Source: an uncultured delta proteobacterium (GTDB lineage: Bacteria; Desulfobacterota; Syntrophorhabdia; Syntrophorhabdales; WCHB1-27). From it: DNA of 64,000 nucleotides. Below the pieces are notes generated by a model. It saw nothing but the letters and a program-made list of their open reading frames with translations. It was not told where the DNA came from and did not search any database. The DNA lies in contig CAWEPK010000010.1 in NCBI GenBank assembly GCA_963810935.1, positions 288,001-352,000 of the forward strand, in the 5' to 3' direction. A program made the translations under genes and the position numbers. Each line of letters opens with the position of its first letter. The first letter of the stretch is position 1. Below are positions 17,932-27,507 of the stretch, piece after piece.

Positions 17932-18051
17932 TTCACATATCGGAGAGATTACAAACAGGATATATTAACGTCCGCTCAGATATATGGACCGCGCCCTCCA
18001 AAACCGGGGTGCCGGCCATGCAGCGGCTTTATGACTACCCAGGAGGACCCC

Positions 18052-19212
18052 ATGACTGACGACACCCCCCTGCTCGACGACCTCGAGAAGGGACCATGGC
18101 CGAGCTTTGTTAAGGAGATGAAGCGGGCTGCAAAGAAGAACCCCGCGGCAAAAGATCTCCTTAAGATCCAGGAGCGCTCCTATCATGACCGGGTAACCCA
18201 CTGGAAGCATGGAGGCATAGTGGGGGTTACAGGCTACGGGGGAGGCGTAATAGGCAGGTACTGCGATGCGCCCGATGACTTCCCATTCGCCGCTGCCTTC
18301 CACACCATGCGGATCAACCAGCCCGCAGGCTGGTTCTACACAACGGACGCCCTCCGGAAGATCTGCGACATATGGGAGAAGTACGGAAGCGGCATGACCA
18401 ACTTCCACGGCTCCACAGGGGACGTCATCCTCCTGGGCACCACCACGGAGAACCTCCAGCCCTGCTTCGACGAGCTTACCGAAGCAGGCTTCGACCTGGG
18501 CGGCTCCGGCTCCGCGCTTCGCACCCCCGCTGGCTGCATAGGCCAGGCCAGGTGCGAGTATGCCAATATCGACACCTTAGACCTTATCTACGACCTCACC
18601 ATGACCTACCAGGACGAGATACACCGCCCCCGCTGGCCCTATAAGTTCAAGATCAAGGCGTCCGGCTGCCCCAACGACTGCGTTGCCGCCATAGCAAGGG
18701 CGGACTTCACGATCATAGGCGCCTGGCACGACTCTCTCCGTATAGACCAGGAAGGGGTAAGGACCTATGTGAAGGATGGTCTGGACATAGACTCCCTCGT
18801 AGTCCGCAAGTGCCCCACCGAGGCCCTTGACTGGGACGGTACTACCTTAAAGCTCATCCCTGAGGACTGCGTCCGCTGCATGCACTGCATAAACACCATG
18901 CCGAAGGCCCTAAGGCCCGGCATAGTCAAAGGGGCAACCATCCTGATAGGCGGCAAGGCCCCTATCTTAAAAGGCGCCAACCTCTCCTGGGTGCTTGTCC
19001 CCTTCATGGAGATAAAACCCCCCTATACGGAAGTAAAGGACCTCCTTGCCAAGATATGGGACTGGTGGGACGAGCACGGAAGGACGCGCGAGAGGGTAGC
19101 CGAGACCATACAGAGGATCGGCCTGAAGGAGTTCCTAAAGGCGGTCGACCTTCCCCCCGTGCCCCAGATGGTCAATAAACCGAGAGCCAATCCCTATGTG
19201 TTCTTCAAATAA
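18052..19212 (+). CDS. dsrA: Dissimilatory sulfite reductase alpha subunit
   Basis: [27 protein letters not shown], CxxxxxC and GCPNDC siroheme-FeS ligands, CVRCMHC; AGGAGG RBS. Confidence 0.97.
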
Positions 19213-19222
19213 GGAGACAACC

Positions 19223-20288
19223 ATGAGAAAGACCGATATAGGACCCCCCGACTTCAAAACGATGCTCCCCGACGTGATCAAGGACAACTACGGCAAATGG
19301 AAGTACCACGAGATCGTAAAGCCGGGCGTCCTCCGCCATGTCTCGGAATCAGGCCAAGAGGTCTACTCCATCCGTGCAGGCTCCCCCAGGCTCGTCTCTA
19401 TAGACTTCATAAGGGACCTCTGCGATGTGGCCGATAAGCACTGCAACGGCCACCTCCGCTTTACAAGCCGCCACAACATAGAGTTCATGACCCCGGACAA
19501 GATCAAAGGTGGAGCCTATTATCGCAGACCTCACAAAACTGGGCCTCCCCATAGGCGGGACGGGCAAGTGCATCTCGAACATCGTCCACACCCAGGGGTG
19601 GATCCACTGCCACAGCGCGGCAACCGACGCATCGGGCATAGTAAAAGCAGTCATGGACGCCTTCCACGACCAGTTCACCGAGATGAAGCTACCGAACCAC
19701 CTTCGGATATCCCTTGCCTGCTGCATCAACATGTGCGGTGCGGTCCACTGCTCCGACCTTGCCATAGTGGGCGTACATACGAAGCCCCCCCGGCCCGACC
19801 ATGAGAGGGTGCTCGCCCAGTGCGAGATACCTACAACCATACAGTCCTGTCCCACAGGGGCGATCCGAAGGCACCCGGATGCTGACATAAAGAGCGTGGT
19901 TGTCCGCGAGGACCTCTGCATGTACTGCGCCAACTGCTTTACCGTCTGCCCGGCCATGCCGCTTGCCGACGGGGATACGGACGGTGTCGCCATTTACGCA
20001 GGGGGCAAGGTGCCCAATGCCAGAAAGCCCCCGATGTTCTCCCGCATGGTAGTCCCCTACCTGCCCAATAACCCTCCCAGGTGGCCCGAGGTAGTGGACG
20101 TCCTCAAGAGGATAGTCGATGTCTATGCATCATCCGCCAGGCCGACCGAGAGACTGGGCGAGTGGATCGAGAGGATAGGCTGGGAGGCCTTCTTCAAAAG
20201 GACCGAGATACCCTTCACCGAGCAGCACATAGACGACTTCACCCATGCAGTGGAGACTTACAGGACTACCACGCAGTTTAAGTGGTAG
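19223..20288 (+). CDS. dsrB: Dissimilatory sulfite reductase beta subunit (one extra base near 19502 as assembled)
   Basis: [19 protein letters not shown], then shifted frame [31 protein letters not shown]. Confidence 0.95.
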
Positions 20289-20293
20289 GGGGA

Positions 20294-20431
20294 ATGATGC
20301 ACTTTCTTCCTTTTTATGAGGGGGTGGCTCCGGCGGCTTCGCCGCTGGAGGGGGCGACGATAGCCCCGGTAATTGCCGACTTTACCCATGTAGTCGAGAC
20401 TTATAGGACTACCACGCAGTTTAAGTGGTAG
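20294..20431 (+). CDS. Putative 45-aa mini-protein ending in a copy of the DsrB C-terminus
   Basis: [45 protein letters not shown]; preceded by AGGGGGA. Confidence 0.35.
   Translation: MMHFLPFYEGVAPAASPLEGATIAPVIADFTHVVETYRTTTQFKW
20315..20377. repeat. 63-bp palindromic interspersed repeat, copy 1
   Basis: 55/63 identical to 27374-27436; hairpin CTCCGGCGGC-TTC-GCCGCTGGAG. Confidence 0.85.
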
Positions 20432-20456
20432 GGGGAAATGATCAGGAGGTTTAACA

Positions 20457-20773
20457 ATGCCTAAGACAAATTAGGTGGAAAAGAAATAGAGATCGATGAG
20501 GACGGCTTCATCCAGGAGCCGGAGAAATGGAACAAAGAGGTGGCGGAAGACTTGGCAGTAACCGAGCATGCCTCTCCCATGGGAGAGGAACACTGGAAGC
20601 TCGTCAACTATCTGAGGGAATACTACCTCAAGTATGAGATCGCCCCTCCCGTCCGTATGCTGGTGAAGCAGACAGGCTTAGACCTCAAGAAAATATATAC
20701 GCTGTTTCCCGGCGGACCGGCGAAAGGGGCGTGCAAAATAGCGGGCCTGCCCAAACCGACGGGCTGCGTGTAG
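20457..20773 (+). CDS. dsrC: DsrC sulfur carrier (one base missing near 20470 as assembled)
   Basis: MPKT..LGGKEIEIDEDGF...LFPGGPAKGACKIAGLPKPTGCV with both C-terminal Cys; AGGAGG RBS. Confidence 0.93.
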
Positions 20774-20786
20774 GGGGCAATACGGC

Positions 20787-21689
20787 GTGAGTATTTTTCT
20801 GGCCATATTGACCTATTTCGGTTACGTCTTCGTAGTGACCATGTACACGGTCAAGGCCGTGAAGTACGTGAGGCGCCCGCGTCACCTGAGATGGGACCTC
20901 TACCCGGTCATGCACGAGGAGAGGTACCGTTACGGCGGCTCTTATTTCGAGGAGATCAATGGTGCGGCCGGGGCGCGCAAGAAACACCGGCTGCGCAGCA
21001 TCTTTTTCCTTTTGAAAGAATATGTGACTATGGGGGAGTACTTCAAGCGGCGAATAAGCTACTGGCTGGCCCTCTACCCCTGGCACATAGGCTTTATCCT
21101 GATAATCGGCTTCCACATCTGCACGTTCTTCGCCGCTGTCGTCATGCTCCTCGGCGTGCCCGTATCGGCAGGATCACCGGTTGCTGCGGGGCGGGTATTT
21201 TACTACGTCGTCCTCTTTACAGGCGTCGTAAGTTTCGTGAGCGGCATCATCGGAAGCATAGGGATGGTAATCAACAGGCTGACTGCCGCCGACCTGAAGG
21301 ATTACGCGACCCCTCAGAACTACTTCACCTATATCTTTTGTCTCGCCATTTTCGGGAGCGGGCTCTACGCCTGGTACTTCGACCCGACTCTCTCGGAGTA
21401 CAGGGATTTCTGGGTCGGACTGATCACGTTCAAGCCCATTATGGTCGCTCCCGCGGGAACGCTCCATATAGTCTTATTCGACCTCTTTCTGGTTTATCTC
21501 CCTTTTACGCGCTCGATGCACTATATCACCCGCATATTCGCCTTCCTCTTCATAAGGTGGGATGACGAGCCCAACCTGCGGGGAAGCCGCCTCGAATCCC
21601 AATTGATCCGCCAGATGGGACAAGGGGTGAGCTGGGCGGCGCCGCACGTACAGACGGGCGGGACATGGGTGGACCAGGTGAAGTCATGA
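20787..21689 (+). CDS. dsrM: DsrM-like NarI-type membrane cytochrome b (copy 1)
   Basis: HLRWDLYPV, multiple TM helices with His ligands (WH..H, H...H), adjacent to a DsrK-like gene. Confidence 0.8.
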   Translation: MSIFLAILTYFGYVFVVTMYTVKAVKYVRRPRHLRWDLYPVMHEERYRYGGSYFEEINGAAGARKKHRLRSIFFLLKEYVTMGEYFKRRISYWLALYPWHIGFILIIGFHICTFFAAVVMLLGVPVSAGSPVAAGRVFYYVVLFTGVVSFVSGIIGSIGMVINRLTAADLKDYATPQNYFTYIFCLAIFGSGLYAWYFDPTLSEYRDFWVGLITFKPIMVAPAGTLHIVLFDLFLVYLPFTRSMHYITRIFAFLFIRWDDEPNLRGSRLESQLIRQMGQGVSWAAPHVQTGGTWVDQVKS

Positions 21690-21705
21690 AGGTTGGAATA
21701 AGTCT

Positions 21706-23304
21706 ATGAAGAAGAGAATAACTGTCCGGGACATGTCGAGAGCGGACCGGCAGCTTGCCACGCTTGCGCCGTCCGGCTTTATGCCGCTGCCTCCCCCTTA
21801 CGACGGTCCAAACGTGATAGGCGAGCTTTCAGACGAGCAGAAGGCTCGGTACGAGGCCTCCCTCGACGGCGTCATAGCTGTAGGGGTGCGGAAACCGCAA
21901 AGCCCCGCCGAAGAAGAGGCGTTCTGCCGCGGCTTCCTCTCGGGCCTCGCGAAGCTCATGACCAAAGAAAACAACTGGACGTTCCTCCAGCCCCTGATGC
22001 ATTCGCTGGACTACTGCGTCAAGTGCCAGCTTTGCAGCGACTCATGTCCCGCGTATCTGGGTAGCGGCAAGCAGGAAATATACCGGCCGACCTTCCGGCC
22101 GGAGGTCCTCCGCCGCATCATCAACAAATATCTCAAGGAAGAGGGCGGTCTGCTCCGCAAGCTGACCGCGAGCGACATCGAACTGAACTTCACCCTTCTG
22201 GCAAGGCTTGAAGAGCTTGCCCACAGGTGCACGCTGTGCCGCCGCTGCGCGCAGGTCTGCCCGCTTGGCGTCGATAACGCGCTGATCTCGCGGGAGATCA
22301 GGAAGCTTTTCAGCCAGGAGATGGGCATCGCCGCGAAAGAGCTGCACGAGCAGGGCACCGTGCAGCAGTTGAAGGTGGGTTCGAGCACGGGCATTACGCC
22401 CAAGGCGCTGGCCAACATCATCGACTTCATGGAAGACGACATAGAGGAGAAGACGGGCAAACGCATAAAGATACCCGTAGACAAGGAAGGGGCCGACGCC
22501 CTTCTCGTGCACAACGCGGGGGAGTTTCTCGCCTGGCCGGAAAACCCGGAGGCGTTTGCGATCCTTTTCGACGCGATGGGCATCGACTATACCCTTTCCA
22601 GCGATCTGGTAGGCTACGATGCGGTCAATTACGGCATATGGTATGATGATGTGCAGGCAGCACGGGTGGCGGTGCGCCACGCGGAGGCTGCGAAGCGCCT
22701 GAAGGTGAATAAGATCTACGTCGGTGAATGCGGCCATTCGCACAAGGCGCTCCTCGTGATCGCCGACCGGATACTGACAGGCGACCTCAATATACCGAGG
22801 GAAAGCTTCCTGCCTCTCATGGAGCGGTTCGTCACGAGCGGAAAGGCAAAGTTCGACCCGTCGAGGAACGCTTTTCCCGTGACCCTCCACGACCCGTGCA
22901 ACATGGTCCGCCTTATGGGTATCGTCGAGCCGCAGAGGAAGATACTCCGGGCGATTTGCCCGGATTTCAGGGAGATGACGCCCCACGGCGTAGAGAACTA
23001 CTGCTGCGGAGGGGGCAGCGGCTTTGCGATCATGCAGTCGATGAACTTCCCAGACTGGCGCAACGCCATATCGGGAAGGATGAAGATGAAGCAGGTCATA
23101 GAGGCTTTTGCTGATAGACCCGATCCGGGCGTCAAAAAGTACGTCTGCGCCCCCTGCTCGAACTGCAAAGGCCTCTTGAGGGACCTGATCACTTATCACG
23201 GCGCGTATGAAAAGAGCGGCATATTCTACGGGGGCCTGGTAGAGCTTGTTGTCAATGCGATGGCGGACCTGAAGAAGCCGTACATCGATTGGGAATGGCA
23301 CTAA
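21706..23304 (+). CDS. dsrK: DsrK-like / HdrD-type Fe-S oxidoreductase (copy 1)
   Basis: Two CxxCxxCxxxCP motifs, GECGH, HDPC, CCGGG, CAPCSNC. Confidence 0.85.
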   Translation: MKKRITVRDMSRADRQLATLAPSGFMPLPPPYDGPNVIGELSDEQKARYEASLDGVIAVGVRKPQSPAEEEAFCRGFLSGLAKLMTKENNWTFLQPLMHSLDYCVKCQLCSDSCPAYLGSGKQEIYRPTFRPEVLRRIINKYLKEEGGLLRKLTASDIELNFTLLARLEELAHRCTLCRRCAQVCPLGVDNALISREIRKLFSQEMGIAAKELHEQGTVQQLKVGSSTGITPKALANIIDFMEDDIEEKTGKRIKIPVDKEGADALLVHNAGEFLAWPENPEAFAILFDAMGIDYTLSSDLVGYDAVNYGIWYDDVQAARVAVRHAEAAKRLKVNKIYVGECGHSHKALLVIADRILTGDLNIPRESFLPLMERFVTSGKAKFDPSRNAFPVTLHDPCNMVRLMGIVEPQRKILRAICPDFREMTPHGVENYCCGGGSGFAIMQSMNFPDWRNAISGRMKMKQVIEAFADRPDPGVKKYVCAPCSNCKGLLRDLITYHGAYEKSGIFYGGLVELVVNAMADLKKPYIDWEWH

Positions 23305-24665: not shown

Positions 24666-26237
24666 GCCGAAACAGGAAGAGATGCTTCAAGGCATCGACT
24701 ACAAGGCATCCGGCTGGATGGCCCCATCCGCCCCTTTCCGCAAAGGGACATACTCCTACGGCGCGCCGGTCAAGCACCAGAAGTACCTGGAGCTGCCCAA
24801 CATAAGGGAGTGGCAGCCGACGGATGCGGACTGGAAGCTCCCGGAAAACTGGAAAGAGATCGTCCTCTCCGGCATGAAGAAGCTCCTTGCCCGCCACCGC
24901 TCGTTCAGGCTTTACCTGGACATCTGCGTCCGCTGCGGCGCCTGCGCGGACAAGTGCCATTACTACATCGGCTCCGGCGACCCTAAGAACATGCCCGTCA
25001 TCCGCGCGGAGCTTTTACGCTCCGTTTACCGCCGCTACTTCACGACCGGGGGCCGCCTTTTCGGCCGCCTGGCAGGCGGGCGAGAGCTTACCGAGGACGT
25101 GATCAAGGAATGGTTCTACTATTTCTACCAGTGCTCGGAGTGCCGCCGCTGCTCCGTCTTCTGTCCCTACGGCATCGATACCTGCGAGATCACGATGATG
25201 GGCAGGGAGTGCTCAACCTGGTGGGCATCAACATCCAGTGGGTGGTGGAGCCTGCCTCCAACTGTTTCAGGACGGGCAACCACTTAGGGATTCCTCCCCA
25301 TGCAATGAAGGAGACCCTCGAATTTGCCGTAGACGAGCTGGAAGGCATAACAGGCATCAAGGTGGACCTCCCCATAAATAAAAAGGGCGCGGAAATCCTT
25401 TTTGTAGCCCCTTCGGCGGACTTCTTCGCAAGCCCCCACTGGTATACGCTTTTGGGCTACCTGGCCCTCTTCCATGAGATAGGCCTCGACTACACGTGGA
25501 GCACCTATGCGTCCGAAGGGGGCAACTTCGGCCTCTTCCATTCTTCCGAGCTTGAAAAGCGCCTCAACGCAAAGATTTACGCGGAGGCTAAAAGATTGGG
25601 AGTCAAGTGGATACTCGGCGGAGAATGCGGACACATGTGGCGCGTCATCCACCAGTACATGGATACCATGAACGGCCCGGCCGACTTCCTTGAAGAACCG
25701 GTATCTCCCATAACCGGTACGAGGTTCGCGAACGCCCGCTCCACGAAGATGGTCCACATATCGGAGTTTTCCGCAGACCTCATAAAGAACGGCAAGATCA
25801 CCCTCAACCCGTCCCGGAACGACAAGTACAGCATCACGTACCACGATTCGTGCAACCCGGCCCGCGCGATGGGGCTTTTTGAGGAGCCCCGCTTTATCCT
25901 GAATAACGTCGCAAACTACTTCTACGAGATGCCGGAGAACACAATAAGGGAAAAAACTTTCTGCTGCGGCGGCGGTGCGGGTCTTGGGGCCGACGAGAAC
26001 ATGGAAATGAGGCTCAGGGGAGGACTCCCGAGGGCAAACGCGGTCAAATACGTACATGAGCGCCACGGCGTAAACATGCTCGCCTGCATGTGCGCCATCG
26101 ATAAAGCTTCGCTCCCTCCCCTCATGGAATACTGGGTGCCGGGGGTCGAGGTATGCGGCGTCCATGAACTGCTCGGGAATGCCCTCGTGATGAAGGGGGA
26201 GACGCGGACGACCGATTTGCGGGGCGAGCCGCTATGA
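24658..26237 (+). CDS. dsrK: DsrK (copy 2; one base missing near 25209 as assembled)
   Basis: CVRCGACADKC, CSECRRCSVFCPYGID, then shifted frame GECGHMWR, HDSCN, CCGGGAG. Confidence 0.93.
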
Positions 26238-27312: not shown

Positions 27313-27320
27313 GGGCAATA

Positions 27321-27485
27321 AATGACCCTGCTGCTTGCAGCAGGGTATCCAGGACAACGAGCTAAGGCGAGTCTTTGAGGGGGAGGCTCCACCGGCTTTG
27401 CCGGTGGAGGGGGCGACGCTAGCCCCAGTAATTGCCACGGAGCGAAGCGAAAAGAGGTCTCCCTGCAGCAAGCTGCAGGGAATCC
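27321..27485. mobile_element. Non-autonomous palindrome-flanked element resembling IS200/IS605 ends (PATE/REP-like)
   Basis: Hairpins ACCCTGCTGC-TT-GCAGCAGGGT (27325-27346) and TCCCTGCAGC-AA-GCTGCAGGGA (27460-27481), each followed by ATCC; no transposase. Confidence 0.55.
27374..27436. repeat. 63-bp palindromic interspersed repeat, copy 2
   Basis: 55/63 identical to 20315-20377; hairpin CTCCACCGGC-TTT-GCCGGTGGAG. Confidence 0.85.
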
Positions 27486-27507
27486 ACCAGTTGAGGAGCG
27501 GCAGGCG

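Follow-up and report, generated by a model that had tools for sequence, protein, structure and literature searches.

The dsr cluster of the window

The window, which is the whole stretch of 64,000 nucleotides that was analysed, carries a dsrAB-dsrC-dsrMK-like-dsrMKJOP cluster (Table 1). It belongs to a genome that is 93% complete with a contamination estimate of 7% (G000 below; C3, C5, C8 and C10 are contigs, and other G numbers denote relatives). The dsrM-like and dsrK-like pair at 20787-23304 is additional to the regular dsrMKJOP behind it and scores below the NCBIfam cut-offs, and dsrK is frameshifted at about 25100-25260. The frames of dsrB and dsrC were compared with the contigs of four public sequencing runs from one study, each separately assembled. 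One base too many in dsrB near 19499-19503 is absent from the C8 paralog and from the contigs of all four runs, and a C lacking in dsrC after 20471 is present in three of the four, the fourth having no cover there. Since the other runs do not have these breaks, the extra base and the missing base are both likely assembly errors. The runs may include the campaign of the source sample, so that their contigs test the assembly and not the spread of a feature.

Table 1. Genes and sequence features around the dsrB tail and the repeats of the window
Feature	Position	Strand	Remarks
dsrA	18031..19212	+	TIGR02064, 561 bits, above cut-off
dsrB	19223..20288	+	TIGR02066, 369 bits for the 3' part
Left flank of the joining site (ATAGA, ending GA)	20229..20233	+	GA as at 22/44 sites
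Working dsrB tail, stop and short spacer (upstream copy)	20234..20299	+	
45-codon frame (predicted)	20294..20431	+	27 codons from the repeat, remainder from the tail copy
Two-hairpin intergenic repeat	20297..20376	+	HMM match 20305-20376; 5' boundary approximate
Displaced copy of the dsrB tail and spacer, abutting the repeat 3' end	20377..20442	+	Spanned by X3 contig 22
dsrC	20457..20773	+	TIGR03342, 93.9 bits
Second member of the repeat family, with longer 5' module, between dsrO and dsrP	27316..27494	+	Without tail copy

A duplicated dsrB tail and a 45-codon frame

The last 17 codons of dsrB with the stop and one preceding base (20234-20288) occur a second time at 20377-20431, at a spacing of 143 bases. 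The sequence that follows the stop, GGGGAATGAT, is likewise repeated behind the copy with one additional A. As originally predicted, the copies differ by four mismatches (TTC/TTT, GCA/GTA with a change from A to V, GTG/GTC and TAC/TAT), and the ATG at 20294 opens 45 codons that end with a stop at 20429-20431. The duplication is not a chance similarity: it aligns locally with a score of 104, and the 99.5th percentile for 2000 random positions is 34. No Pfam or NCBIfam match was found for the 45-aa peptide.

The original prediction had asked for reads to confirm that the duplication is real. Contig 22 of run X3 spans 20119-20427 with one letter differing, which identifies the duplication as no misassembly, and the copy is connected to dsrC by contigs of two further runs, X2 and X4. 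The frameshifts in dsrB and dsrC that other runs lack, together with the contamination estimate, could be taken as signs that a repeat-rich, error-prone assembly had produced the layout. However, a separately assembled contig spans both junctions, and the same junction, joined to different tail alleles, is found again on C8 and at two places in G001; misassembly is given next to no credence here.

A two-hairpin repeat family

The spacer between the two tails is one of about 125 HMM-profile matches in G000 to a repeat of about 75 nt with two hairpins. In the window the repeat is made up of an ATG/T-rich 5' module, hairpins at 20328-20350 and 20351-20367, and a fixed 3' end, TAAT-TGC, and it folds with -44.9 kcal/mol (z -2.3). 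Its hairpins are internal, and no terminal inverted repeats joining its two ends were found. Among the 21 further genomes of the same taxonomic family, 20 carry the 3'-end motif, and across the order 59 of 96 do; repeat-rich genomes of the order have about 40-50 copies of the motif, others being repeat-poor or repeat-free. Matches to the repeat pattern come from records titled Syntrophorhabdales or related labels, and the repeat is a family belonging to that order. Rfam gave no match at the gathering score, the single match reaching 21.4 bits against a cut-off of 58.6. A literature search, with subscription papers outside its coverage, returned no description of the repeat or of displaced synonymous tails behind palindromic repeats, and the lineage is unnamed in the accessible part of PMC10591310.

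The repeat is open in one frame, which frequently begins with ATG, and similar N-termini of 27 residues are encoded by 19 of the 31 G000 copies that have the T-rich 5' module. Since 27 of the 45 residues of the predicted peptide thus come from a genome-wide repeat, they are not specific to the dsrB locus. The hairpins of the second member in the window resemble IS200/IS605 ends, and the start of dsrP behind it looks frameshifted.

Duplicated gene ends behind the repeat

Repeat 3' ends were pooled from G000 and from the loci around repeat matches in relatives, with sequence duplicates removed. The relatives contributed 30 of the 49 G001 matches and every exact motif match in G002, G004, G008, G009, G017, G007, G021 and G019, and the pool also took in at least 98 stretches from a collection-wide scan. 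Short flanks led to the loss of 11 of the 223 ends, leaving 212 unique ends in a pool that is biased towards repeat variants fitting the motif used for the search.

Upstream sequence was found copied directly after TAAT-TG(C) at 49 of the 212 ends (17 of 86 in G000), while the same filter let through 9 mismatched pairs and 2 random positions, out of 2000 in each control. The 49 ends represent 45 distinct sites, which include the ends of hemY/hemG-like, infA-like, purH-like and dapF-like genes as well as the 3' parts of tRNAs; gene labels of this kind, ddl-like among them, were mostly assigned from translations. The junction lies at TAAT-TG(C) to within about one base. On the gene side, GA stands directly before the joining site in 22 of 44 cases, against a background of 8% (P 4e-13). 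Outside arrays the copies are 13 to 105 nt long. The unit of gene end, spacer and repeat, measured from the site to the repeat end, is 100-160 nt long at 42 of the 45 sites, with a median of 131. Tandem arrays of two to five identical units also occur (for example G000 C10:27182-27571 and L213). Relative to local GC skew no strand bias was seen (24 versus 23), which a lagging-strand enzyme might have produced.

Several individual sites are worth recording. At G000:C5:1600-1760 (L291), where the repeat is antisense within an operon, what has been displaced is the start of a ddl-like gene, and the working gene begins anew behind the repeat. The tRNA junction at G000:C8:693691-693825 and that of L228 are the same site in two genera, and at G000:C3:84535 another tRNA is cut within the T-loop motif.

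The diverged copies allowed a count of codon differences. Reading frames were set by a codon model and hand curation, those of L054 and L086 being set by hand contrary to the model, and L168 (indel), L215 (doubtful), tRNAs, identical pairs and the IS-interrupted C8 copy were left out. At 16 diverged loci there were 37 synonymous and 9 nonsynonymous differences among 218 codons, in alignments that end where similarity ends and at loci that are not fully independent. Were one copy merely decaying, 38-42% of the differences should be synonymous, compared with the 80% observed (P 1e-7 to 4e-9). The IS-interrupted C8 copy, outside this count, has 6 synonymous and no nonsynonymous differences. The differences are of all types and fall at third positions. 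Synonymous to nonsynonymous ratios at in-frame and other sites were 29:5 and 8:4, with no significant difference (P 0.21). The synonymous bias that had been noticed in the window is therefore real, but it is found family-wide and is not about dsrB. Most simply read, the downstream copies would once have been working ends of the gene in a different allele. At the hemY-like gene, it is the downstream copy with which the empty allele of G002 is collinear. The three empty relatives of C8:260881 side with neither copy (a mixed result), and at the ddl-like locus G002 carries the repeat without a copy.

One alternative is that the repeat jumps behind a stop codon in a single step and makes a long, variable target duplication, with arrays and divergence arising later. 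Long, variable target duplications are made by the IS1634 family. A single step would suit the many pairs that show no difference over 13-65 nt, the native sequence into which the downstream copy runs on and the existence of empty sites, as well as the 3-26-bp duplications that YPAL makes beside stop codons (PMC2229807). The excess of synonymous differences over the roughly 40% predicted by decay of one copy argues against it, as does the narrow size range, which belongs to the total unit and not to the duplicated part. The repeat also has no terminal inverted repeats. Orthologs, moreover, share the 5' position of the repeat while the 3' junction is different or absent, as at dsrB (G001 C2, G012, G017), at the dapF-like gene (G000 versus G001) and at the ddl-like gene (G002). 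We consider a one-step insertion improbable.

dsrA and dsrB loci in related genomes

A second dsrAB of G000, on C8, is 98.8% identical to that of the window and has the same working tail and repeat with a different tail copy, an IS200-like element sitting at the TAAT of its repeat. The C8 tail copy is 3 codons apart from the empty G002 allele at the same locus, whereas the working tail is 5 codons apart. In G001 three arrangements were found: dsrB-repeat-dsrC without a copy, which is the ortholog of the window locus; dsrB-repeat-copy-repeat-copy; and dsrB followed by a DsrD-like gene. G002 dsrB has neither repeat nor copy. Overall there are three dsrB junctions (one in G000 and G001, one in G012 and one in G017), each after GA, and empty dsrB alleles in G002, G004, G009 and G021. 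Both states occur in the sister genus, G004, G009 and G021 being empty; in G012 and G017, repeat and copy are present at the two other junctions and lead on to native spacer and an intact DsrD-like gene.

The three dsrA paralogs of G001 are identical over 540 nt up to the junction on C3. There the downstream copy is the tail of the other paralogs, and the upstream tail differs from it by 5 synonymous and 0 nonsynonymous codons. Of all the loci, this one most clearly illustrates a downstream copy that had been the working end of another allele. The dsrAB paralogs of G001 (L031, L032 and L033) show no difference in the 540 nt compared of both genes, but their tails and neighbouring genes (a dsrC cluster, an RsbRD-like gene and a DsrD-like gene) are not the same. 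This identity reflects either strong gene conversion or polishing across copies.

What the window copy has in common with the working tail is ACC, a codon derived from GCA and the spacer after the stop. The changes private to it are GTC and GTA, the latter turning Ala into Val at a codon that specifies Ala in all 15 other tails that include it. The three synonymous changes out of four in the window are thus divided between both copies and give no sign of selection on the peptide.

The 45-codon frame and DsrD

DsrD (PF08679) is a winged-helix protein of about 70-78 aa and an allosteric activator of DsrAB, and in Bilophila it is fused to the DsrB C terminus (PMC8794893). Behind dsrB, 28 of 29 loci in relatives encode a conserved winged-helix-like protein of 67 aa (for example L033:3904-4104), which we call DsrD-like from this position and from winged-helix matches. 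Against solved DsrD (1ucr) it reached an E value of only 0.18, its best scores being against Z-alpha domains, and the protein of this order itself escapes PF08679. A PF08679 search of G000 gave no match, but the control was silent too. Searches of G000 with the G001 protein and with an 18-row profile, which finds the protein in G001, G002, G003 and G017, returned no DsrD-like gene. In G001 and G002, DsrD-like, dsrN-like and dsrC genes form a separate block (L321, L322). This block is missing whole from the 93%-complete G000 assembly, so the absent gene does not establish a loss of DsrD.

The original prediction had placed the 45-codon frame in a "dsrD slot" and considered a peptide mimic of the DsrB tail that would replace DsrD in modulating how DsrAB(C) assembles; the reading weighed here also takes in DsrAB activity. 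The position behind dsrB is right and is the only likeness to DsrD, with no family match and no sequence similarity; the label is misleading, since relatives have the tail copy plus a DsrD-like gene. The original prediction had proposed to look for the frame in relatives. All six dsrB tail copies, which come from four genomes including G000, are in frame with an ATG, and the G001 ortholog of the window locus has no copy. Besides the in-frame ATGs, a mimic could draw on the nearly unchanged tail residues, on the lack of a DsrD-like gene in the G000 assembly and on the Bilophila fusion, which suggests that DsrD binds near the DsrB C terminus (PMC8794893). Against this, the same layout and synonymous bias occur at unrelated genes, tRNAs being among the 45 distinct sites. 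G012 and G017 have both the copy and a DsrD-like gene; G001, G002 and G003 have DsrD-like genes, and it is a whole block including one that G000 lacks. The orthologous dsrB-dsrC locus of G001 manages with the repeat alone, and G002 dsrB with neither element. The peptide itself varies in length (20-57 aa) and N-terminus, its window version changed an otherwise invariant Ala, and it gave no alignment with the DsrD-like protein of the order (G001). A regulatory mimic therefore appears highly improbable.

A further possibility is that the frame is translated for the sake of expression. Ribosomes would restart at the repeat ATG, read through the hairpins and terminate where the native gene does, so that coupling to the next gene is kept and polarity limited, and in-frame junctions would be kept more often. 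The six in-frame dsrB copies (4 genomes, 3 junctions), one of which takes its ATG from an IS end, would suit this, as would a G-rich stretch before ATG 20294/20297 and the finding that no terminator-like site was predicted in the spacer. Of the 19 sense-gene sites that follow GA, 15 are in frame where trinucleotide phase predicts 9.8 (P 0.011), but a tetranucleotide-phase null expects 11.6 of 19 (P 0.06), and the excess fades. Among all sense sites 24 of 37 are in frame, and GA falls at codon positions 1-2 half the time. The repeat-borne ATG frame is not enriched at duplicated sites (14/34 versus 36/78, P 0.68), nor are one-base length variants avoided there (9/34 versus 23/78). Moreover, the six dsrB copies, with their three junctions, are not independent, antisense and tRNA cases cannot fit, and dsrB-repeat-dsrC in G001 has no copy. 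Translation for coupling is in our view distinctly improbable, and a role of translation in any form, which would mostly be operon coupling, is unlikely.

Origin of the copies

The tail copy is probably a scar, formed when the fixed 3' end of the repeat was joined to a site that lies 143 bases upstream, within a matching gene copy. Because the repeat lies in the same layout between duplicated ends of many unrelated genes, it is most likely that the copy is a recombination scar and not a peptide replacing DsrD. Of the two readings first offered for the 45-aa ORF, a scar of element insertion or allele recombination is thus retained, and a DsrB-tail mimic replacing DsrD is given up. We view the repeats as a new family with behaviour of a known kind, a variant of REP/BIME gene-end capture.

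In the mechanism that we propose, a nick-and-strand-transfer enzyme, probably of the Y1/HUH type, would join the repeat 3' end to an upstream site. On a sister copy the product would be tail-repeat-tail-repeat, as in the BIME amplification model (PMC3333891 Fig. 7B). In that model, TnpA-REP nicks a low-specificity dinucleotide and host polymerase extends; a further nick on the 3' side of the REP then attacks the earlier one, which adds a unit, and flanking gene fragments are captured (PMC3333891). Such addition of units fits the arrays, and four rayt 3' ends have been built into BIMEs (PMC2817692). This product would then become tail-repeat-tail' by homologous recombination with paralogs or strains free of the repeat, in which the gene body and the copy supply the homology. 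In this scheme tail' would have been a working gene end until displaced, which would account for the synonymous differences, and recombination with such paralogs or strains would also explain the junction common to C10 and C8.

At the window locus, the derived codons and the spacer that the copy shares with the working tail suggest that it arose from the same allele. The second repeat was then likely lost and the copy is now drifting, and the junction was likely carried later to the C8 dsrAB paralog through gene conversion; this order of events rests on few codons. The 45-aa frame would be a by-product. Several observations count against this reading: the junction is imprecise by about one base and the joined sites differ (GA versus GC), all six dsrB tail copies are in frame with an ATG, GA sites show the in-frame excess described above, the empty relatives at C8:260881 side with neither copy, there is no strand bias, the IS200-like element inserts 3 bases short of the junction, and no enzyme was found at the loci searched.

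Candidate enzymes were looked for beside the repeats. A search of 505 ORFs adjacent to repeats yielded only housekeeping clusters and IS200-like TnpA. No copy of the repeat was found in 30 Y1-transposase loci, taken from among the matches in incomplete genomes, or in 10 reverse-transcriptase loci, and none beside the long Y1 gene of G000. This gene (G000:C8:712011-712952) encodes a Y1 (HUH) protein of about 315 aa, has terminal inverted repeats of its own and was missed by the Pfam genome search; subclass 2.1 of PMC6006769 serves as a comparison. The IS200-like element of G000 (C8:661695-662341 and six others) is 647 nt long and contains tnpA only, with 4 of its 7 copies in a repeat 3' end. 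It inserts after TAAT, 3 bases ahead of the usual junction, and its end tetranucleotides fit the guide-pairing rule of IS608. Models based on reverse transcription were set aside, there being no RVT_1 match in G000 or G002 and antisense cases among the sites.

A tentative and rather unlikely alternative is that the repeat "homes" between alleles without a RAYT. A nuclease would link the 3' end of the repeat with GA in a homologous gene copy, some 130 nt further upstream, which would spread the repeat across paralogs and strains and swap gene ends; in-frame junctions would give short repeat-plus-tail peptides, kept at dsrB in six of six cases.

Comparison with known systems

Read as a recombination scar, the layout comes closest to REP/BIME elements with TnpA-REP (RAYT). 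Shared properties are intergenic hairpin repeats in about 100 copies (here 125 HMM matches), local tandem amplification of a unit with a gene 3' end and spacer (PMC2817692; PMC3333891 Fig. 7), a low-specificity dinucleotide site away from the hairpin, and IS elements that target the repeat. There are also differences. REPs have the tetranucleotide GTAG at the 5' foot of the hairpin, whereas GGTGG/GGAGG is found in the window and the HMM consensus. TnpA-REP cuts at C^T (PMC8266576) or CA, while the joints seen here lie after TG/TGC on the repeat and mostly at GA on the gene, and known TnpA-REP exchanges the same dinucleotide where the joined sites in our data differ (GA versus GC). BIMEs contain REP-iREP pairs instead of single repeats arranged head to tail. 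In REP systems a cognate tnpA-REP gene is flanked by the repeat, and none such was found in the Y1 loci examined. Capture at about a quarter of the copies and displaced synonymous alleles likewise set the present family apart.

YPAL/RU-2 of Yersinia resembles the repeat in having no terminal inverted repeats, internal hairpins, a place behind stop codons, a flanking duplication of variable length and an open frame that is carried along (PMC2229807). YPAL is about 168 bp long and makes duplications of 3-26 bp (PMC2229807), compared with about 75 nt and copies of 13-105 nt in our data, and it is unlike the present family in the narrow unit size, the arrays and the re-joining at resident copies seen here.

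A MITE would have terminal inverted repeats and a short, fixed target-site duplication, and neither was found. A non-autonomous derivative of IS200/IS605 would be expected to share the cut site of a resident TnpA element and to make no target duplication; the cut site differs, and a shared hairpin top is the sole likeness. Prophage e14 in icd is an integrative element that replaces the 3' end of a gene; as in our case, the working tail lies upstream and the displaced synonymous tail downstream of the insert. Unlike e14, the repeat has no integrase or cargo, has many unrelated targets and can have variable junctions at one gene. Diversity-generating retroelements have a reverse transcriptase nearby and make adenine-specific changes, while G000 and G002 gave no RVT_1 match and the changes seen here are of all types.

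Implications

The interest of the finding is low for DsrAB regulation and moderate for the mechanism of mobile DNA. For sulfur biology, a false lead is removed, and the frame behind dsrB should not pass for a DsrD substitute. As the order's own DsrD-like protein is missed by PF08679, marker-gene surveys would score these genomes as dsrD-negative. Automatic gene prediction will report ORFs of this repeat-plus-tail kind at many loci. The near-identical dsrAB paralogs are built-in recombination partners. For mobile DNA, the sites provide an unusually clear natural record of how a short palindromic repeat spreads, a long-open question for REPs: the donor end is fixed, the preference for targets can be measured, the units fall in a narrow size range, and alleles are known in both the filled and the empty state. 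Such a record puts the nick-and-join model within reach of a test and directs attention to an enzyme yet to be found.
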